Program-made: the position numbers and the translations under genes
The notes under the pieces: model-generated
The model's database searches: none
Told to the model about the DNA's origin: nothing
Seen by the model: only the letters and a program-made list of their open reading frames with translations
Shown: piece by piece, positions 34,930 through 60,423 of the stretch
How positions within the stretch are numbered: position 1 is the first letter of the stretch
Layout: each line of letters opens with the position of its first letter
Virus record (IMG/VR): IMGVR_UViG_3300015615_000629
Span: 432,711-496,710 of that record
Direction: 5' to 3' (one strand)
Length of the DNA stretch: 64,000 bases
Source: a virus
Taxonomy: Duplodnaviria; Heunggongvirae; Uroviricota; Caudoviricetes

Positions 34930-36345
34930 CTAAATTGTTTTTATATATCTCAAATGCCCTGCATCCCAAATTCTATCATAGCCATTTAACTTCATAATCT
35001 CATATTCCGGCAAGTCGGTAGAATACCCCTCCATTTTAACCAGTTTATGCTTTTGAAACTTCATCCTGTTAAAAAATTGTTTGTTCTTTATATTGTAATA
35101 CCCATATCCAGGTGAAGTTATCCCATCTAATTTAAATCCAATCTTTTCATACAAACCACCAATAGAATACCTTCGATCAGCATAAGACATAATGCTCTTT
35201 ACATCAAAACACTTCAACAATTTGCTAGCACCTCCAACAATATTCACTCCAAGTCTAGAACAATATCTTTTTAATTCATATCCATATTGTTTGTTCGGTA
35301 CAAGAGTCATGCAGGCGACTAATTCTCCATCGTGATACAAACCATATGCTAACTTAGAGTTGTCACTGCCTTGTAAGTGATTGATATTTAGAAAATTATT
35401 CTTTTCTTCAAACGACAACTCCTTTGACACCGTCTGGCGAGCATAAATTACAGCATTTGTTCTTAAATAGCCAGACAAACGGGATTTAACAATATCTTGT
35501 TTGTTTTCCCATTCATTCTCATATATCTGAATCAGGCGTATACCTAATTTGTCTGCAATTTCGGCTTTTTGAAAATGTAGTTTTTTACCAACTACAGACT
35601 CGGTGTGCCAATACATTCCATGATATTCTACCCCAAGTTTTAGTTCTGGAAGATAAATATCTATTTCTTTATAGTCTAACAAACGCTGATTAGTCTGTAT
35701 TTCACCGGAATGTTTAGTTTTAATGAAATCAGCAATCTCACGTTCACCTCTAGATTGGGACATCTCCCCAACACAACCGGGGCAGGCCAAATCAGACTTA
35801 AGATGTGTATAAGCAGCCTGTTCAAAGTCGCCATGTTTTTTACAAGTTATCTTAATTTTATCATGGGCTTTTGTGTAGTCGCCGTGATAAGTGAATTTGC
35901 CGCCATGCGTTTCAGTTGCTAGTTTCTCGAATGTTTGAACATTATAAGCCACGCCACCTTTACATTTCGGACAACCATTTTTAATGTTTATATGATTTGT
36001 TGCCGATTGGATAAATTCTCCATGATTAGGACAAATTATGGTTACTTTAGTGTAGATTCCATTAACGAGATCAACTTTAGAATAGTCATAAAAATCTCCA
36101 TGAACTTCTCTGGCACGTTTGATAAAAGTTTCTTTGGTGTGCTTGCCTACACCTCTACCAGCACAATGAGGGCAGCCACATTTTAAATGTCGATATGGAT
36201 ACTGTTCTACATCACCATGCCTTGGGCATTTGTAGAGAATCTTGGTAACTTTGTTGACATAAACGGTTTCTGAATAATCGTATTTGTCGCCATGTTTGGC
36301 GGTGGCTTTAACAAAAAACTTGGCTGGACTGGCTTTGCTAGACAT
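34930..36345 (-). CDS. Composite homing-endonuclease-like protein: three tandem Cys/His zinc-ribbon modules, a DUF559/Vsr-like PD-(D/E)xK nuclease and a GNAT-like tail
   Basis: Three repeats of HGDKYDYS..V......CP.HG.F.Q.......GCP.C. GVEYHGMYWHTE...IRLIQIYENEW is a DUF559-type motif. The C-terminal VGGASKLL...LYEKIGFKL resembles acyltransferase motifs A/B. Confidence 0.5.
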   Translation of the reverse strand: MSSKASPAKFFVKATAKHGDKYDYSETVYVNKVTKILYKCPRHGDVEQYPYRHLKCGCPHCAGRGVGKHTKETFIKRAREVHGDFYDYSKVDLVNGIYTKVTIICPNHGEFIQSATNHINIKNGCPKCKGGVAYNVQTFEKLATETHGGKFTYHGDYTKAHDKIKITCKKHGDFEQAAYTHLKSDLACPGCVGEMSQSRGEREIADFIKTKHSGEIQTNQRLLDYKEIDIYLPELKLGVEYHGMYWHTESVVGKKLHFQKAEIADKLGIRLIQIYENEWENKQDIVKSRLSGYLRTNAVIYARQTVSKELSFEEKNNFLNINHLQGSDNSKLAYGLYHDGELVACMTLVPNKQYGYELKRYCSRLGVNIVGGASKLLKCFDVKSIMSYADRRYSIGGLYEKIGFKLDGITSPGYGYYNIKNKQFFNRMKFQKHKLVKMEGYSTDLPEYEIMKLNGYDRIWDAGHLRYIKTI

Positions 36346-36441: not shown

Positions 36442-37884
36442 TTAGATTACAAAGTTAGCAATCGAGAGACGGGCATAGAACTTAGCACCTTCACGCAAGA
36501 GCTTTTTACCATATCGGGTAATTAAACCTTTACGAGGACAGAATCCATCTGGGTCTAATACAACCGGAGTTTGTGTAAGCGGCACATACGGGCAGAAGAA
36601 GTAACCCGAATCCATATAAGAATCACCTTTATAACCTAATAACATTTGGTTAGTTGGGAACAAAGGATCCTTATACAAACGCCAACGGGTATTAACCGTT
36701 CCCACGTACTGAACACCAAGCGAGCTGGTGAAGGTTTCAGACGGGGCTGGGGCGAAACCAGCGGTAGCGGTTTCAAACATCGAGGCAACTTCCGGAGAAG
36801 TTACGATCCAGTTAGCACCACCACGCAAGGTCTTACGGTGAACTTGGTTCGAAATTTCAACAGTCTTTACGAACAAAGATTCATACTTTTCTTTAATCGT
36901 GTCACCGAGGGCCGTGTTGAAATCCCAAGACGAAACAGTACCAGCACTGGTACGCAAGTCACTGAGAACTTCACGGTCGATTTCAAGATTAACTTCCTGA
37001 GCCAAAACAGCGGTCAATTCTTGTTCGGCATCAAGGTTATGCTGCGAACGAATATCTTGCTGGGCTTCGTAGCTCCAAACGGCTTTCAACTTACGGCTCT
37101 TAGCGACAATTTCTTCGCTTTCGATAACCATGTTGATTTCCGGGAGGTCTTGATTACACTCCATATTGTATTCATAGGATACAATTGCATAATTCGTGCT
37201 AGGAGTACCACCAGTCCAAGCAATGGTCAATTCACCCGTGGTGACGTTAACCGTGCTACCGGCCTGAAGACCCTTAACAGTCGGAGTTCCGATATCGACA
37301 AACGTAACTGTGCCACCTTCAGAAACGCTGAAAGTTTGAACAGCCGTAGCCGATTCATACAACGTTCCCGTAATGGTTCCGGCAAAAACCGGCGTGTGCT
37401 TGAACGGTTCGAAGACCGTGGTCGAGGCACCACCTGCATCGCTAGCCAAGGTTTCGTTCTGGACGAACGAGCTTGAGTAATAGATGTCAAGGTTTGCATC
37501 ACCAGAAGCGGTCTGCATCAAGCTTCTTGAATCATCACCTGGGAATCCGGAATTGCTTGCACCGAGGGTAGCACCCTTGTCGCTTCCGTAACGGAAACGG
37601 AGGTAGTACACCAAGCCGGTCGGGCCGAGCAACGGCTGAACCGACACAACTTTATTGGCAATCAACTGCGGATAAATACGACGAACAAGCGGAATACTAA
37701 TACGCTTGAAGTTTGCTACGTCAGAACTATCAGTAGCGGTTTCATTCATTAATCTCTGGTTTTCGAGAAGGACAGCTGCGCATGATCGGGTAAAGCGATC
37801 ATTGATGCCTTCCAGCAAACCAGTCGGTGCCCAGAGTGATTCACACTCTTTGGCTTCATTTAAGAATCTAGAATTTCCTTCCAT
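36442..37884 (-). CDS. Major capsid protein, T4 gp23-like
   Basis: LLENQ...ISIPLVRRIYPQLIANKVVSVQPLLGPTGLVYYLRFRY is a conserved gp23-family N-terminal region. The gp21/gp22 neighbours agree, as do the GC-richer codon usage and the terminator. Confidence 0.75.
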   Translation of the reverse strand: MEGNSRFLNEAKECESLWAPTGLLEGINDRFTRSCAAVLLENQRLMNETATDSSDVANFKRISIPLVRRIYPQLIANKVVSVQPLLGPTGLVYYLRFRYGSDKGATLGASNSGFPGDDSRSLMQTASGDANLDIYYSSSFVQNETLASDAGGASTTVFEPFKHTPVFAGTITGTLYESATAVQTFSVSEGGTVTFVDIGTPTVKGLQAGSTVNVTTGELTIAWTGGTPSTNYAIVSYEYNMECNQDLPEINMVIESEEIVAKSRKLKAVWSYEAQQDIRSQHNLDAEQELTAVLAQEVNLEIDREVLSDLRTSAGTVSSWDFNTALGDTIKEKYESLFVKTVEISNQVHRKTLRGGANWIVTSPEVASMFETATAGFAPAPSETFTSSLGVQYVGTVNTRWRLYKDPLFPTNQMLLGYKGDSYMDSGYFFCPYVPLTQTPVVLDPDGFCPRKGLITRYGKKLLREGAKFYARLSIANFVI

Positions 37885-57655: not shown

Positions 57656-57910
57656 ATGAGGTTAAAAATGTTAATTAGTGATTTTCCCAATGAATTTATG
57701 GTTGCTATTTCTGACTTCCTTGCCAGAAATCAACTCATTATGTCCGATGATGAAGATTTAGATGACTTGGAAGAAGACGACGATGATGATACTGACGAAG
57801 ATTGGGAAGATGAAGATTTAGACGATGACGATTACGACGATTTTGATGAAGACGAAGACGACGAAGATGATGATTGGGATATAGATATCGACGAAGAGGA
57901 CGATGAATAA
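57656..57910 (+). CDS. Hyper-acidic small protein (D/E-rich C-terminal two-thirds)
   Basis: DDEDLDDLEEDDDDDTDEDWEDEDLDDDDYDDFDEDEDDEDDDWDIDIDEEDDE. Its stop is TAATG-coupled to the next gene. The antisense ORF is R/H/L-rich junk. Confidence 0.5.
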   Translation: MRLKMLISDFPNEFMVAISDFLARNQLIMSDDEDLDDLEEDDDDDTDEDWEDEDLDDDDYDDFDEDEDDEDDDWDIDIDEEDDE

Positions 57911-58287
57911 TGGGAGTTGGCATTTGTTTTGGTGAAACTTTTTCTGGAATGTCGAATGCATGGGGACATACCTATGGCTCACGGCAAGTTGTTCAAAAGG
58001 AGAATAAAAAAGAACCGCCTCCTCCTAATCCAAACCCTTCAAAATATAAGATTTTAAAAAAGAAAATAGTAGGAAAATTCCTAGTAGTTGAGATTGCTTA
58101 TGACGGTTGCACGAACTACGAGGGCAAGAAGATATTAGTATTTAAAGACGTTTCGTATCAAAAGTTAATGGAACAACAATCAATAGACCCGCATTTTTCT
58201 GAAAATAAAGATTTAATTTCTCCAATTGCTCGCTTTGAGCCCACCAAACGTGGTTGGAAATTGGCTATTAGTTTTGCATCTATTTAA
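57910..58287 (+). CDS. Hypothetical protein
   Basis: TAATG coupling. Confidence 0.4.
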   Translation: MGVGICFGETFSGMSNAWGHTYGSRQVVQKENKKEPPPPNPNPSKYKILKKKIVGKFLVVEIAYDGCTNYEGKKILVFKDVSYQKLMEQQSIDPHFSENKDLISPIARFEPTKRGWKLAISFASI

Positions 58288-59053
58288 ACAACAATCTTCT
58301 ATGTATTGGTAATTTCTTGATGCTTGTCTTAACCTTAAAAGGTGAAGGCATAGGAATTTTAGGATCACGCCTTAAGTTGTGATCGATAATCGGCAATTTG
58401 TACGGAGCCTTGCTGGTCTTTGCCGGAATAATGTCGTTGTCGGCGTAAATAACACAGGCCCAGGAATCCCATCGCTTTTTGAATCTTTCCACGTTCATGG
58501 TCTGAACTTTAAGGCTGTAGTCGCTATTATCCACCCATTTAACAACATCCTTTTCTTCATCAAAGTGGACAAGTACCATAGCATGCCCTGGCACGCCGAA
58601 TAAGCAACCTCTGCCTTCTTCCATTGCCCTACGGATTAATTCTAATCCTTGCTCTCTGTCTTGATAGCTTTGTTCAAACTTGACTTCTAATTTAGTTAAA
58701 ACACTTTTTACCAACGACGGAGAAGAATATGTAGAACATTCTTTTCGGCTGGTAAGTGGTGGCTCAGTTAATTTTGGTTCTTCAGCCCAACGACCGAGCA
58801 TTTCAATAGAAGACCAAACACATTGGGTTCCTGTGTGATTTTTTACTCTATCTTTCTCAGGAATAGGGCATTGAATATCGCTGGGCGCGGTTTCGCCGCC
58901 CATTGAAATGTACGGAGCAGTATAGTCTGTCGTATAATTTGATGGATCGCGTTCAAGAGGCGACAGTTGTTCTTCTGGGGATTTGAAGTGCTTGTAAAGA
59001 AAAACAAATCCGGCGAACAACAAGAAACTTAGTAGGAATCCTTTCCAGTGCAT
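58280..59053 (-). CDS. Membrane-anchored papain-fold cysteine peptidase (C39/transglutaminase-like)
   Basis: N-terminal TM helix. HTGTQCVWSSIEMLG places a Cys at a helix N-terminus, and GHAMVLVHFDEE supplies the His. Confidence 0.45.
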   Translation of the reverse strand: MHWKGFLLSFLLFAGFVFLYKHFKSPEEQLSPLERDPSNYTTDYTAPYISMGGETAPSDIQCPIPEKDRVKNHTGTQCVWSSIEMLGRWAEEPKLTEPPLTSRKECSTYSSPSLVKSVLTKLEVKFEQSYQDREQGLELIRRAMEEGRGCLFGVPGHAMVLVHFDEEKDVVKWVDNSDYSLKVQTMNVERFKKRWDSWACVIYADNDIIPAKTSKAPYKLPIIDHNLRRDPKIPMPSPFKVKTSIKKLPIHRRLLFK

Positions 59054-60423
59054 CTTTATCTGCTTTCTAAAACATTTTTAGTTCTTGCTTCGACCAATCG
59101 ACTTAATTAATCAAAAATATTAACCAGAGGCCAACTGTCCACAAGCGTAATTTCCCGAATAGCCTTCGGTAAGTATATTTTTTGCTGCGTTTATATCTCT
59201 ATCAATGCTAACGCTACACTGATCACAAACATAAACTCTTTCACTCAATGGCATTTTCTGTTTGTTTCCGCAATTACTACATAATTGACTACTTGGAAAA
59301 AAACGTCCTACTTTGTAGACTTCATTATTCCAAATGTCTTTTTTATAGTCTAATTGACGATAAAACTCTCCTAAACCTACATCTGCCAATGTGAAACTTA
59401 GCGAACGATTCTTAAGCATGCCTTTGACGTTTAAATCTTCAATACACATAATTTGGTTTTCATTACATAATTTTGAAGTAATTTTATGCCAAAAATCTTG
59501 TCTAATATTACTTAGTTTTAAGTGTGCTCTTTGCAATTTAATAATTTGCTTTTTGCTATTATTGCTTCCTTTTTGTTTTCTTGATAAACGTCTATAAAGT
59601 TTGGCAATTTTTTTCTTTTGTTGTTTGAAGGGCCGTGGCGGCTTTATTTGCAAACCATCACTAGTGGTAATTGCCTCGTTAATCCCTAAATCTACACCGA
59701 TAACACTCTCGCCAGATCGTTCTTTTGAATAATTATCAACGTCAACACGAACAGAAACGAACCATTGGCTAGCGCGGCAGCAGATAGTACCTGATATTAT
59801 TTTACCTTTTAATCTCAAATTTTCAGAAACTTTAATTCGCCCTATTTTTTGAATTTTTATTTGTTTATTTCCAAATACAAATCTATCATTAGAAACATAA
59901 AATGAGTCTTTTTTGCCTTTCTTTTTGAAAGTTGGATATTTGGATAATTTCTTGAAAAATCTTTGAAAAGCATTGTTTAGATTAACGAATGGTTGTTGGT
60001 TGGCATCTTTTGGGCTTTCGTAGACCCATTTAGGCTTTTCTTTATTCCATAATTTTTTCAACTCGTTTGCTGTAGGTTTTTGTCCTTGTTTATACAAGTC
60101 AGTCCATTTTGCCAATGCCCAGTTGTACGTAAATCTAGCCGTTCCACAAGCTTTTTTAAGCATAGTGGTTTGTTCTTTGTTTGGATAGATTTGTATTTTG
60201 TGGGTCAATATCAAAATTTATCTCCGTATTATTTTTTTCTTCCTTTTAACAGGCGGCAACTGATCAGATCCAGGTGTGTGAACATCATTCCAGGCACCTA
60301 TCGATTGCCCCTTGCCTGGATCGGGATCAACAGGATTTTGTTTTGGAGGTTCCAAACCTCCACCCAAAACCTGTGATTCCAACCAATTCTTAAAACCAAT
60401 ACCGTTCACAGAGTTATATATCG
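59054..60423 (-). mobile_element. IS200/IS605-family insertion (tnpB-only, IS1341-like), about 1.37 kb
   Basis: It contains tnpB. The upstream ~200 bp, 60215-60423, is GC-rich. It carries subterminal hairpins, CCAGGCA-16 nt-TGCCTGG and GGAGGTT-cca-AACCTCC, which are LE-like. The short 3' segment 59054-59119 would be the RE/omega-RNA region. Boundaries are approximate. Confidence 0.55.
59120..60214 (-). CDS. tnpB: TnpB (IS605 OrfB-family RuvC-like RNA-guided nuclease)
   Basis: N-terminal KIQIYPNKEQTTMLKKACGTARFTYNWAL. RuvC-I motif IGVDLGI. C-terminal zinc finger CSNCG...CDQC. RuvC-III DRDINAAKNI. TTG start. Confidence 0.8.
   Translation of the reverse strand: MILTHKIQIYPNKEQTTMLKKACGTARFTYNWALAKWTDLYKQGQKPTANELKKLWNKEKPKWVYESPKDANQQPFVNLNNAFQRFFKKLSKYPTFKKKGKKDSFYVSNDRFVFGNKQIKIQKIGRIKVSENLRLKGKIISGTICCRASQWFVSVRVDVDNYSKERSGESVIGVDLGINEAITTSDGLQIKPPRPFKQQKKKIAKLYRRLSRKQKGSNNSKKQIIKLQRAHLKLSNIRQDFWHKITSKLCNENQIMCIEDLNVKGMLKNRSLSFTLADVGLGEFYRQLDYKKDIWNNEVYKVGRFFPSSQLCSNCGNKQKMPLSERVYVCDQCSVSIDRDINAAKNILTEGYSGNYACGQLASG

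Follow-up and report, generated by a model that had tools for sequence, protein, structure and literature searches.

The tnpB locus

The window, which is the whole stretch of 64,000 nucleotides analysed here, corresponds to positions 432,711 to 496,710 of the IMG/VR virus record IMGVR_UViG_3300015615_000629 (Caudoviricetes). It contains a tnpB gene and the scaffold of an omega-RNA, which together form an insertion of 1,162 bp on the minus strand, from about 60221 to 59060, between two phage genes. The insertion consists of tnpB and the omega-RNA/right-end region only. The three genes at the locus are:

60218..60409, minus strand: conserved phage gene of 63 amino acids, in the flank and outside the element; read as the left end of a transposon in the first-pass annotation
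59120..60214, minus strand: tnpB coding sequence, 364 amino acids, TTG start codon and TAA stop codon, identified from the open reading frame list and from profile and structure matches
58280..59053, minus strand: downstream phage gene of 257 amino acids (g257), in the flank; its start region is the predicted target

Judged by its sequence, the tnpB product is a genuine and intact TnpB. The open reading frame is full length, with no frameshift and no internal stop codon, and occurs as a single copy in the window. The Pfam domains HTH_OrfB_IS605 (PF12323), OrfB_IS605 (PF01385) and Cas12f1-like_TNB (PF07282) all match above their cut-offs, and the protein combines the features by which a TnpB is recognized, namely a helix-turn-helix/WED N-terminus, an OrfB_IS605 (RuvC) domain and a C-terminal zinc ribbon. 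The NCBIfam model guided_TnpB scored 287 bits (cut-off 100). The top-scoring specific model was IS200_TnpB with 316 bits, under its cut-off of 425, and the match to the IS607_TnpB model was also below cut-off. Alignment with the 12 closest homologs showed that the RuvC residues D175, E259 and D340 are invariant, as are the zinc-finger cysteines C312, C315, C330 and C333 (CxxC..CxxC); every column that is invariant in the 12 other proteins is retained in the window TnpB. The TTG codon lines up with M1 of all homologs, and the HTH_OrfB_IS605 match begins at residue 1. The structure of ISDra2 TnpB aligns with the protein (E 3e-57), with D175, E259 and D340 opposite the ISDra2 motifs GVDVG, TEHL and DRDENAA. 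The corresponding ISDra2 triad is D191/E278/D361. These results confirm the full-length TnpB with RuvC-I, -II and -III motifs and a zinc finger that the first-pass annotation had described. The closest homologs are 52-69% identical, and the nearest relatives among them, at 55-69% identity, are all located on phage-like contigs. The annotated phage collection contained no TnpB of more than 41% identity and no DNA relative of the locus.

Insertion between a Shine-Dalgarno sequence and a start codon

With the 257-amino-acid gene as query, 20 syntenic loci were fetched from viral and metagenome collections; homologs of g257 were found in these loci and among 300 proteins, many of them encoded on contigs of 490-650 kb. 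Where enough flanking DNA is available, the syntenic order is primase, exonuclease, peptidase, a 175-amino-acid gene and then the 257-amino-acid gene. In the approximately 20 syntenic relatives tnpB is absent from the site and the 63-amino-acid gene abuts g257. The tnpB element is therefore a lineage-specific insertion and not an ancestral gene. The empty sites agree with the earlier description of an element inserted cleanly between two co-directional phage genes, and a domesticated copy of the same gene at this position, which would have spoken against it, was found in none of these relatives.

At 60410-60423, between the 175-amino-acid gene and the 63-amino-acid gene, the window has only 14 nucleotides. 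Each of the 11 relatives whose sequence includes this position has a gene of about 170 amino acids there on the opposite strand (for example L002 5200-5715, L018 2051-2560 and L014 2105-2614), and no homolog of it was found anywhere in the window. Compared with its relatives, the locus has thus lost one gene and gained another within 1.5 kb.

The junctions of the insertion are marked by the following features:

60222..60226, minus strand: CGGAG, a motif at the left junction resembling a target-adjacent motif (TAM); former Shine-Dalgarno sequence of the downstream gene, 7 nucleotides upstream of the tnpB TTG codon
60217..60223, minus strand: AGATAAA, left copy of a 7-nucleotide junction repeat; contains the stop codon of the 63-amino-acid gene
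59055..59061, minus strand: AGATAAA, right copy; last 2 nucleotides of the right end and first 5 nucleotides of the flank

Between CGGAG and the tnpB start codon there is only TT (ATAAATT with the repeat included), which corresponds to a left end of about 2 nucleotides. The same core dinucleotide occurs at both junctions (..CGG-AG on the left, ..AGC-AG on the right), and the relatives of the element are alike in this respect. The predicted empty junction is AATACGGAG|ATAAAGATGCACTGG. In the reconstructed empty site, ..AATACGGAG|ATAAAGATGCAC.., GGAG lies six bases before the ATG of g257 and the TAA of the small gene two bases before it, as in the relatives. Insertion has placed tnpB 7 nucleotides downstream of the captured GGAG; it shares the reading frame of the small gene and begins one codon past the stop of that gene.

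Related elements display the same arrangement. The likely left border carries NGGAG or AGGGG in L004, L005, L006, L010, L052, L210, L211, L214 and L215, the variants being AGGAG, TGGAG or AGGGG in these nine relatives and CGGAG in the window. An open reading frame of at least 69 codons, complete or running off the contig, begins 5-11 nucleotides past the right end in 13 of the 15 clade members. In the relatives, the NGGAG at the left border lies too far from tnpA or tnpB to serve these genes as a ribosome-binding site. Most simply, the TAM of this clade is read as a Shine-Dalgarno sequence, with insertion taking place between it and the start codon. For the TnpB of ISFba1, an IS607 element, AGGAG was determined experimentally as the TAM, with a staggered cut at 16/22 nucleotides (PMC11061315). 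The TAM of ISDra2, TTGAT, overlaps the tnpB start codon in the window and was rejected as a target; the relatives have no TTGAT at that place.

Right end, omega-RNA scaffold and predicted guide

The gap of 66 nucleotides between the tnpB stop codon and the ATG of the next gene holds the right end of the element. Its features, together with those of the RNA that extends into tnpB, are:

59060..59197, minus strand: omega-RNA scaffold, overlapping the last 78 nucleotides of tnpB including the stop codon
59169-59155, minus strand: omega-RNA stem-loop SL1, a hairpin inside the open reading frame
59146-59141 with 59088-59084, minus strand: omega-RNA long-range helix, GCUUGU with GCAAG
59123-59107, minus strand: omega-RNA stem-loop SL2, a free-sequence hairpin enclosed by the long-range helix
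59081-59067, minus strand: omega-RNA stem-loop SL3, a short and variable third hairpin
59060..59068, minus strand: right-end terminus AGAAAGCAG; similarity among related elements ends after the G at 59060
59040..59059, minus strand: predicted guide/target ATAAAGATGCACTGGAAAGG; its first 16 nucleotides are 59059-59044, and the ATG of the downstream gene (59053-59051) falls within it

The right ends of 9-15 related elements share a block that runs to AGAAAG(C/T)(A/G)G, after which the flanks diverge immediately. A scan of IMG/VR for the right-end motif gave 21 matches, none of which adjoins a tnpB; these were dismissed as chance matches in purine-rich coding sequence or tRNA-gene regions.

The last ca. 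140 nucleotides before the terminus adopt a common fold consisting of SL1, the long-range helix, SL2 and the variable SL3. RNAalifold analysis of nine sequences yielded 23 base pairs, with compensatory changes in 17 of them. A covariance model built from this alignment scored 143 bits in the window over the full model, comparable to other members of the seed alignment, and this was the sole match in the window. The model matched 76 of the approximately 170 related tnpB loci, in each case on the same strand as tnpB and at its 3' end. In an alignment of 48 distinct sequences, which was itself fitted to the model so that its pairing figures have to be read with this caveat, 93.6% of the cells were paired, as compared to 35-45% when partners were slid, and all 23 pairs varied on both sides; no shuffle reached the observed values. 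The guide-RNA scaffold is thus well supported as a conserved structured RNA reaching the right end of the element, in agreement with the first-pass annotation, which had placed the right end and the 3' region of the omega-RNA in the 66-bp segment. Neither the region, scanned against Rfam at E<=1, nor 14 related loci gave a match to any family, by which RAGATH-18 and other curated RNA families were rejected as candidates for the scaffold. The scaffold represents an RNA family that is absent from Rfam, with 76 members among the related tnpB loci and strong covariation.

The sequence ATAAAGATGCACTGGAAAGG, which occurs once in the window, lies directly 3' of the conserved scaffold end. Following the TnpB paradigm (PMC8612924, PMC11061315), it is predicted to be the guide.

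The segment upstream of tnpB is a phage gene

In the first-pass annotation, the 200 bp upstream of tnpB were proposed to be a left end with two subterminal hairpins. This proposal does not survive comparison with the relatives. The segment encodes a 63-amino-acid protein whose homologs share the motif FKxWLE..GGG.EPP..LPP and a tail rich in K/R. At least 10 relatives without tnpB (L001-L003, L014, L016, L018 and L022-L025) carry a homolog of the small gene immediately before that of g257, and its stop codon overlaps or almost touches the ATG of the 257-amino-acid gene. The segment 60218-60409 is host phage sequence and not a transposon end, conserved both as a protein and in position, and a left end of 200 bp with hairpins is ruled out. 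From the conserved small gene, the left border of the insertion can also be placed to within a few bases of that gene's stop codon.

The hairpins themselves are real as folds: segment 60215-60423 can form two long hairpins with a DNA fold z-score of -3.6, and none of 200 shuffled sequences was as stable. They fall inside coding sequence, at the GGGLEPP codons, and are not conserved. In a DNA alignment of the small gene the conservation is codon-wise, and just a 5-bp GG/CC stem recurs in 8 relatives. The hairpins are accordingly retained from the earlier description, their assignment as subterminal transposon structures is not. Nor is a GC-rich left end contrasting with an AT-rich host sequence found here. 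The GC content of the segment (0.44) is ordinary for the neighbouring phage genes (0.42 for g257), and it is tnpB (0.33, as compared to 0.38 for the window) that forms the AT-rich part.

Relationship to IS607 transposons

Whereas the first-pass annotation assigned the element to the IS200/IS605 family, the genomic evidence places it in an IS607 lineage resident in phage genomes, with this copy being non-autonomous. A serine transposase TnpA of the MerR-HTH/resolvase type overlaps the start of tnpB in L004 (65% TnpB identity) and L215 (55%), and both proteins match the NCBIfam model transpos_IS607 above its cut-off. A serine TnpA or a remnant of it was found in 28 of the approximately 170 related loci. 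Among the neighbours of tnpB in this clade are baseplate, tail, T4 gp13-like and DNA polymerase III genes. L006, L210 and L010 retain a left part of 55-75 nucleotides that shares a TGTAGTAAAA-like motif. In the window no serine TnpA was detected by tblastn, and the ca. 40-bp IS607 left end with transposase-binding repeats is not present. A short-word BLAST search for left-end or tnpA remnants upstream of tnpB proved too noisy in AT-rich DNA.

In L052, just the last ca. 40 codons of a serine tnpA (1858-1977; 75% identical to the corresponding part of L215) are left directly upstream of tnpB, so that this member of the same clade represents an intermediate step in the loss of the transposase.

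The alternative is that the element is a tnpB-only member of the IS200/IS605 family, which depends on a Y1-type transposase, with segment 60215-60423 and its two subterminal hairpins as left end and with insertion 3' of a TTAC-like target. Several properties are in line with this: the stability of the fold in that segment relative to shuffled sequences, IS200_TnpB as the best specific NCBIfam model in spite of a score under the cut-off, ISDra2 TnpB as the closest natural solved structure, and an omega-RNA that overlaps the 3' end of the open reading frame, as in IS605 elements. Against it stand the protein-coding nature of the proposed left end, by which the relatives already refute this part of the alternative, and the failure of the window sequence in two further respects. 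IS605-type subterminal hairpins are not found as conserved structures at the left end, and in place of an AT-rich target of 4-5 nucleotides (TTAC, TTGAT) 5' of it there is CGGAG in the window and NGGAG or AGGGG in the nine relatives, with TTGAT and TTAC not consistently placed. The target claimed as TTAC-like is thus not upheld. Furthermore, the annotated genes of the closest loci include the serine TnpA and no Y1 TnpA. The Y1 enzyme (PF01797) was found neither next to tnpB in the window by a Pfam scan nor among the Pfam-annotated called genes of L004-L010 and L210-L215; this covers annotated genes, as no direct Y1 search of all ca. 170 loci was made. We regard an IS200/IS605 origin as very improbable.

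The IS607 transposase needs about 40 bp of the left end (PMC10690162). Without TnpA and with almost no left end, the copy in the window cannot be excised or transposed, even when a transposase is supplied in trans. The earlier wording of an active-looking mobile element is therefore too strong; since transposition is not possible, RNA-guided homing would be the sole remaining route of spread. The target preference of IS607 elements is G-rich (PMC10690162, PMC13565253), and their usual core is GG (PMC13565253), as compared to AG for the core that would apply in the window.

The junction repeat

The repeat at the junctions extends beyond the core. The ATAAA that occupies the 5 nucleotides after the left TAM is identical to the first 5 nucleotides of the right flank, giving 7 nucleotides if the shared AG is included. 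The same pattern is found with 6 nucleotides in L005 (GCAATT) and L010 (TAGTTA), whereas L052 has a 4-nucleotide repeat that may be due to chance. No junction repeat is present in L004 and L215, where tnpA is intact, or in L210 and L214, which have a long left part. Runs of at least 5 nucleotides after GGRG occur in 3 loci, as compared to 0.7 expected with permuted guides, a modest enrichment that is no more than suggestive.

Direct repeats of 8 nucleotides were noted at the two junctions in related tnpB-only elements, GGGCAATT in L005 (1432-1439 and 2656-2663) and AGTAGTTA in L010 (1509-1516 and 2729-2736). They resemble a target-site duplication, which is not expected of IS607.

Three mechanisms were weighed for the junction repeat: the 2-bp core of a serine recombinase, fill-in of a 6-nucleotide overhang left by TnpB, and selection that keeps the upstream stop codon. 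None of these fits all cases. One idea is that TnpB cut an empty site and that imprecise joining of the break produced the left junctions; this would account as well for the truncated left ends of the window copy and of L005. L010, with an apparently complete left end, fits poorly.

Proposed role of the element

The analysis establishes the identity and intact catalytic residues of TnpB, the conserved structured RNA, the boundary of the right end, the lack of TnpA and of a left end, and the empty sites in relatives; the TAM, the guide, nuclease activity and homing are inferred. Probably the element is a tnpB and omega-RNA cassette of IS607 descent that has lost its transposase and left end, is inserted between a Shine-Dalgarno sequence and an ATG, and may spread by homing. 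Its role is most likely that of an RNA-guided homing or exclusion nuclease. The cassette would have landed directly past the stop codon of the small gene, between CGGAG (acting as both Shine-Dalgarno sequence and TAM) and the ATG of g257, and tnpB would now be translated from the captured Shine-Dalgarno sequence with a TTG start. Processing of the tnpB transcript would give an omega-RNA with the 16-20 nucleotides after the right end as guide. In the carrier genome the guide sequence is preceded by AGCAG, one G-to-C change away from a GGAG TAM, and self-cutting would not be expected. In a relative without the insertion, the same sequence would lie beside CGGAG and could be cut during co-infection. 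Repair of the break by recombination with the carrier would then introduce the cassette into the relative, or else the competitor would be damaged. Precedents exist for such a process: TnpB-driven homing into empty joints was demonstrated for IS605 and IS607 in E. coli (PMC10690162, PMC13565253), and spread independent of TnpA was found with plasmids, while for phages non-restorative homing in co-infection has only been proposed (PMC13565253).

Several observations weigh against this reading or against present activity of the element. By sequence, the window TnpB is closer to that of ISDra2 (IS605, TAM TTGAT) than to that of ISFba1 (IS607). The candidate TAM in the window reads C-GGAG, but no deviation from AGGAG is tolerated by ISFba1, and the putative TAM-reading residues of the window TnpB are a mix of ISDra2 and ISFba1 types, which leaves genomic context as the only basis for the TAM. 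IS607 chemistry, with its 2-bp core and no duplication, does not predict a 5-nucleotide repeat. The start codon of tnpB is TTG, and the JGI gene call begins at M18; SL3 of the window RNA is shorter than in relatives. Finally, the flanking gene has no match above 68% amino acid identity among 5.8 billion proteins, IMG/VR and the JGI contigs, and a search with the exact 22-mer of the junction found no closer empty-site relative. With the best relative at 68%, neither the exact empty site nor a real target of the guide was found in these collections.

The lack of a left end and of TnpA, the single copy, the weak TTG start created at the junction, the shortened SL3 and the lack of a known target genome could also mean that the element is an inert relic, i.e. 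a once-mobile IS607 copy that is decaying after loss of TnpA and the left end, with nuclease and RNA idle. Yet the open reading frame is full length with all invariant columns kept, the RNA matches the covariance model along its entire length at 143 bits, and a Shine-Dalgarno sequence is kept 7 nucleotides from an in-frame start codon, which looks selected. Moreover, the same minimal layout recurs in other phages, as in L005, with 30 nucleotides upstream, and in L212 and L214, with tight downstream genes. A relic is accordingly an unlikely explanation, but still less unlikely than the other function that could be envisaged, a domesticated one: the cassette would then serve the phage by excluding competing relatives without homing or by RNA-guided regulation of g257. 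The ribosome-binding region and the start codon of g257 lie within the predicted guide, phage-encoded RNA-guided repressors derived from TnpB exist in the form of TldR (PMC10705468), and homing endonucleases can serve in phage competition (10.1101/2023.09.30.560319). But the RuvC triad is intact, the guide is plain flanking sequence, which is true of every transposon copy and gives no hint of retargeting, and the target in cis is preceded by AGCAG and lacks a TAM, so that binding in the carrier genome is not expected. We give domestication a small chance.

That tnpB genes occur in phages and that non-autonomous tnpB copies exist is already well known. What is added here is the RNA family, the rule of insertion at a Shine-Dalgarno sequence that doubles as TAM, and a possible natural case of transposase-independent homing. 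The role of the common phage TnpB genes is unsettled; in the present case the nuclease and guide RNA alone remain, and any spread must be independent of TnpA, a mode for which experimental support so far exists only with plasmids. The insertion rule (TAM equal to the Shine-Dalgarno sequence, 5-11 nucleotides before the start codon) may aid the annotation of element borders in densely packed phage genomes, and for the development of editing tools it is relevant that this clade pairs an ISDra2-like protein with an apparently G-rich TAM. A wider and more tentative proposal, which we consider possible but doubtful, is that phage-resident IS607-derived tnpB/omega-RNA cassettes spread among huge phages as transposase-less RNA-guided homing endonucleases, with the Shine-Dalgarno sequence as TAM, insertion therefore always falling between a ribosome-binding site and the start codon of its gene, the right end replacing the lost ribosome-binding site, and the short repeats of TAM-proximal target bases at the left junction and the truncated left ends (window, L005) as scars of imprecise repair after TnpB had cut an empty site. 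If true, non-restorative homing without a transposase would have left a natural record of itself here in phage genomes.

Phage context

Genes for a portal protein, large terminase, major head protein, primase and exonuclease identify the window as phage DNA, and the phage is a huge one; the same proteins are also found on a 572,167-bp JGI contig. The window harbors one further selfish nuclease, an HNH/homing endonuclease of 471 amino acids that matches PHROG 559 at E 4e-108 and also PHROG 3339. Its gene (34930-36345, minus strand) follows immediately downstream of that for the major head protein (36442-37884, minus strand). An 84-amino-acid open reading frame (57656-57910, plus strand) consists nearly entirely of Asp/Glu runs, and its DNA weakly matches hypothetical genes in jumbo phages of Erwinia and Xanthomonas.

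The phage-like contig of L004 (1-2685, 10553-11116) encodes a DNA polymerase III alpha subunit that bears an intein signature, a protein resembling ribosomal protein S21, and a peptide deformylase. Some homologs of g257 (P0160, P0168) and the TnpB/omega-RNA loci L148, L149 and L155 are filed under archaeal metagenome-assembled genomes (Thorarchaeota, Crenarchaeota, Hermodarchaeota). Some of these records are on contigs of ca. 546 kb, and they may be huge-phage contigs binned with archaea.

Comparison with known systems

The nearest natural structure is that of ISDra2 TnpB (PDB 8EXA, 8H1J; PMC8612924), with which the window protein shares the domain order, the D-E-D RuvC triad and the zinc finger. 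In both systems the scaffold overlaps the 3' end of the open reading frame and ends at the right end, and the guide corresponds to flanking DNA. Unlike ISDra2, the clade has a serine recombinase instead of a Y1 HUH enzyme as partner, NGGAG instead of TTGAT in the left flank, no subterminal hairpin ends, and an RNA that matches no Rfam family. ISFba1 TnpB (PDB 8IAZ; PMC11061315) is similar in its association with IS607, its G-rich, Shine-Dalgarno-like TAM and its compact RuvC nuclease of about 380 amino acids. Protein similarity is lower (E 3e-43), the TAM-contact residues are not conserved, and the RAGATH-18 RNA of ISFba1 is located wholly outside the open reading frame, whereas the window scaffold overlaps tnpB and has no RAGATH-18 match.

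The IS607 TnpAS-TnpB system of CboIStron (PMC10690162) is likewise of the serine-transposase type and resembles the window element in the core dinucleotide at both junctions and the G-rich TAM, and TnpB of CboIStron was shown to home into empty donor joints (PMC10690162). CboIStron possesses TnpA, a 40-bp left end, a 60-bp right end, a group I intron, the TAM TGGG and a GG core, whereas the window copy has no TnpA, left end or intron, a core that would be AG, and a 5-nucleotide repeat beyond the core. The repressor TldR differs in that the window protein has an intact RuvC triad and that its guide is the element's own flank and not a host promoter. In its genomic setting the cassette is similar to the free-standing Seg and Mob homing endonucleases of phage T4: these, too, are selfish nucleases whose genes lie between conserved ones of the phage, are missing from relatives, and are expected to be passed on in co-infection. 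Unlike these enzymes, recognition would be by a guide RNA and a TAM, and self would be distinguished from non-self by the presence of the insertion and not by sequence polymorphism.

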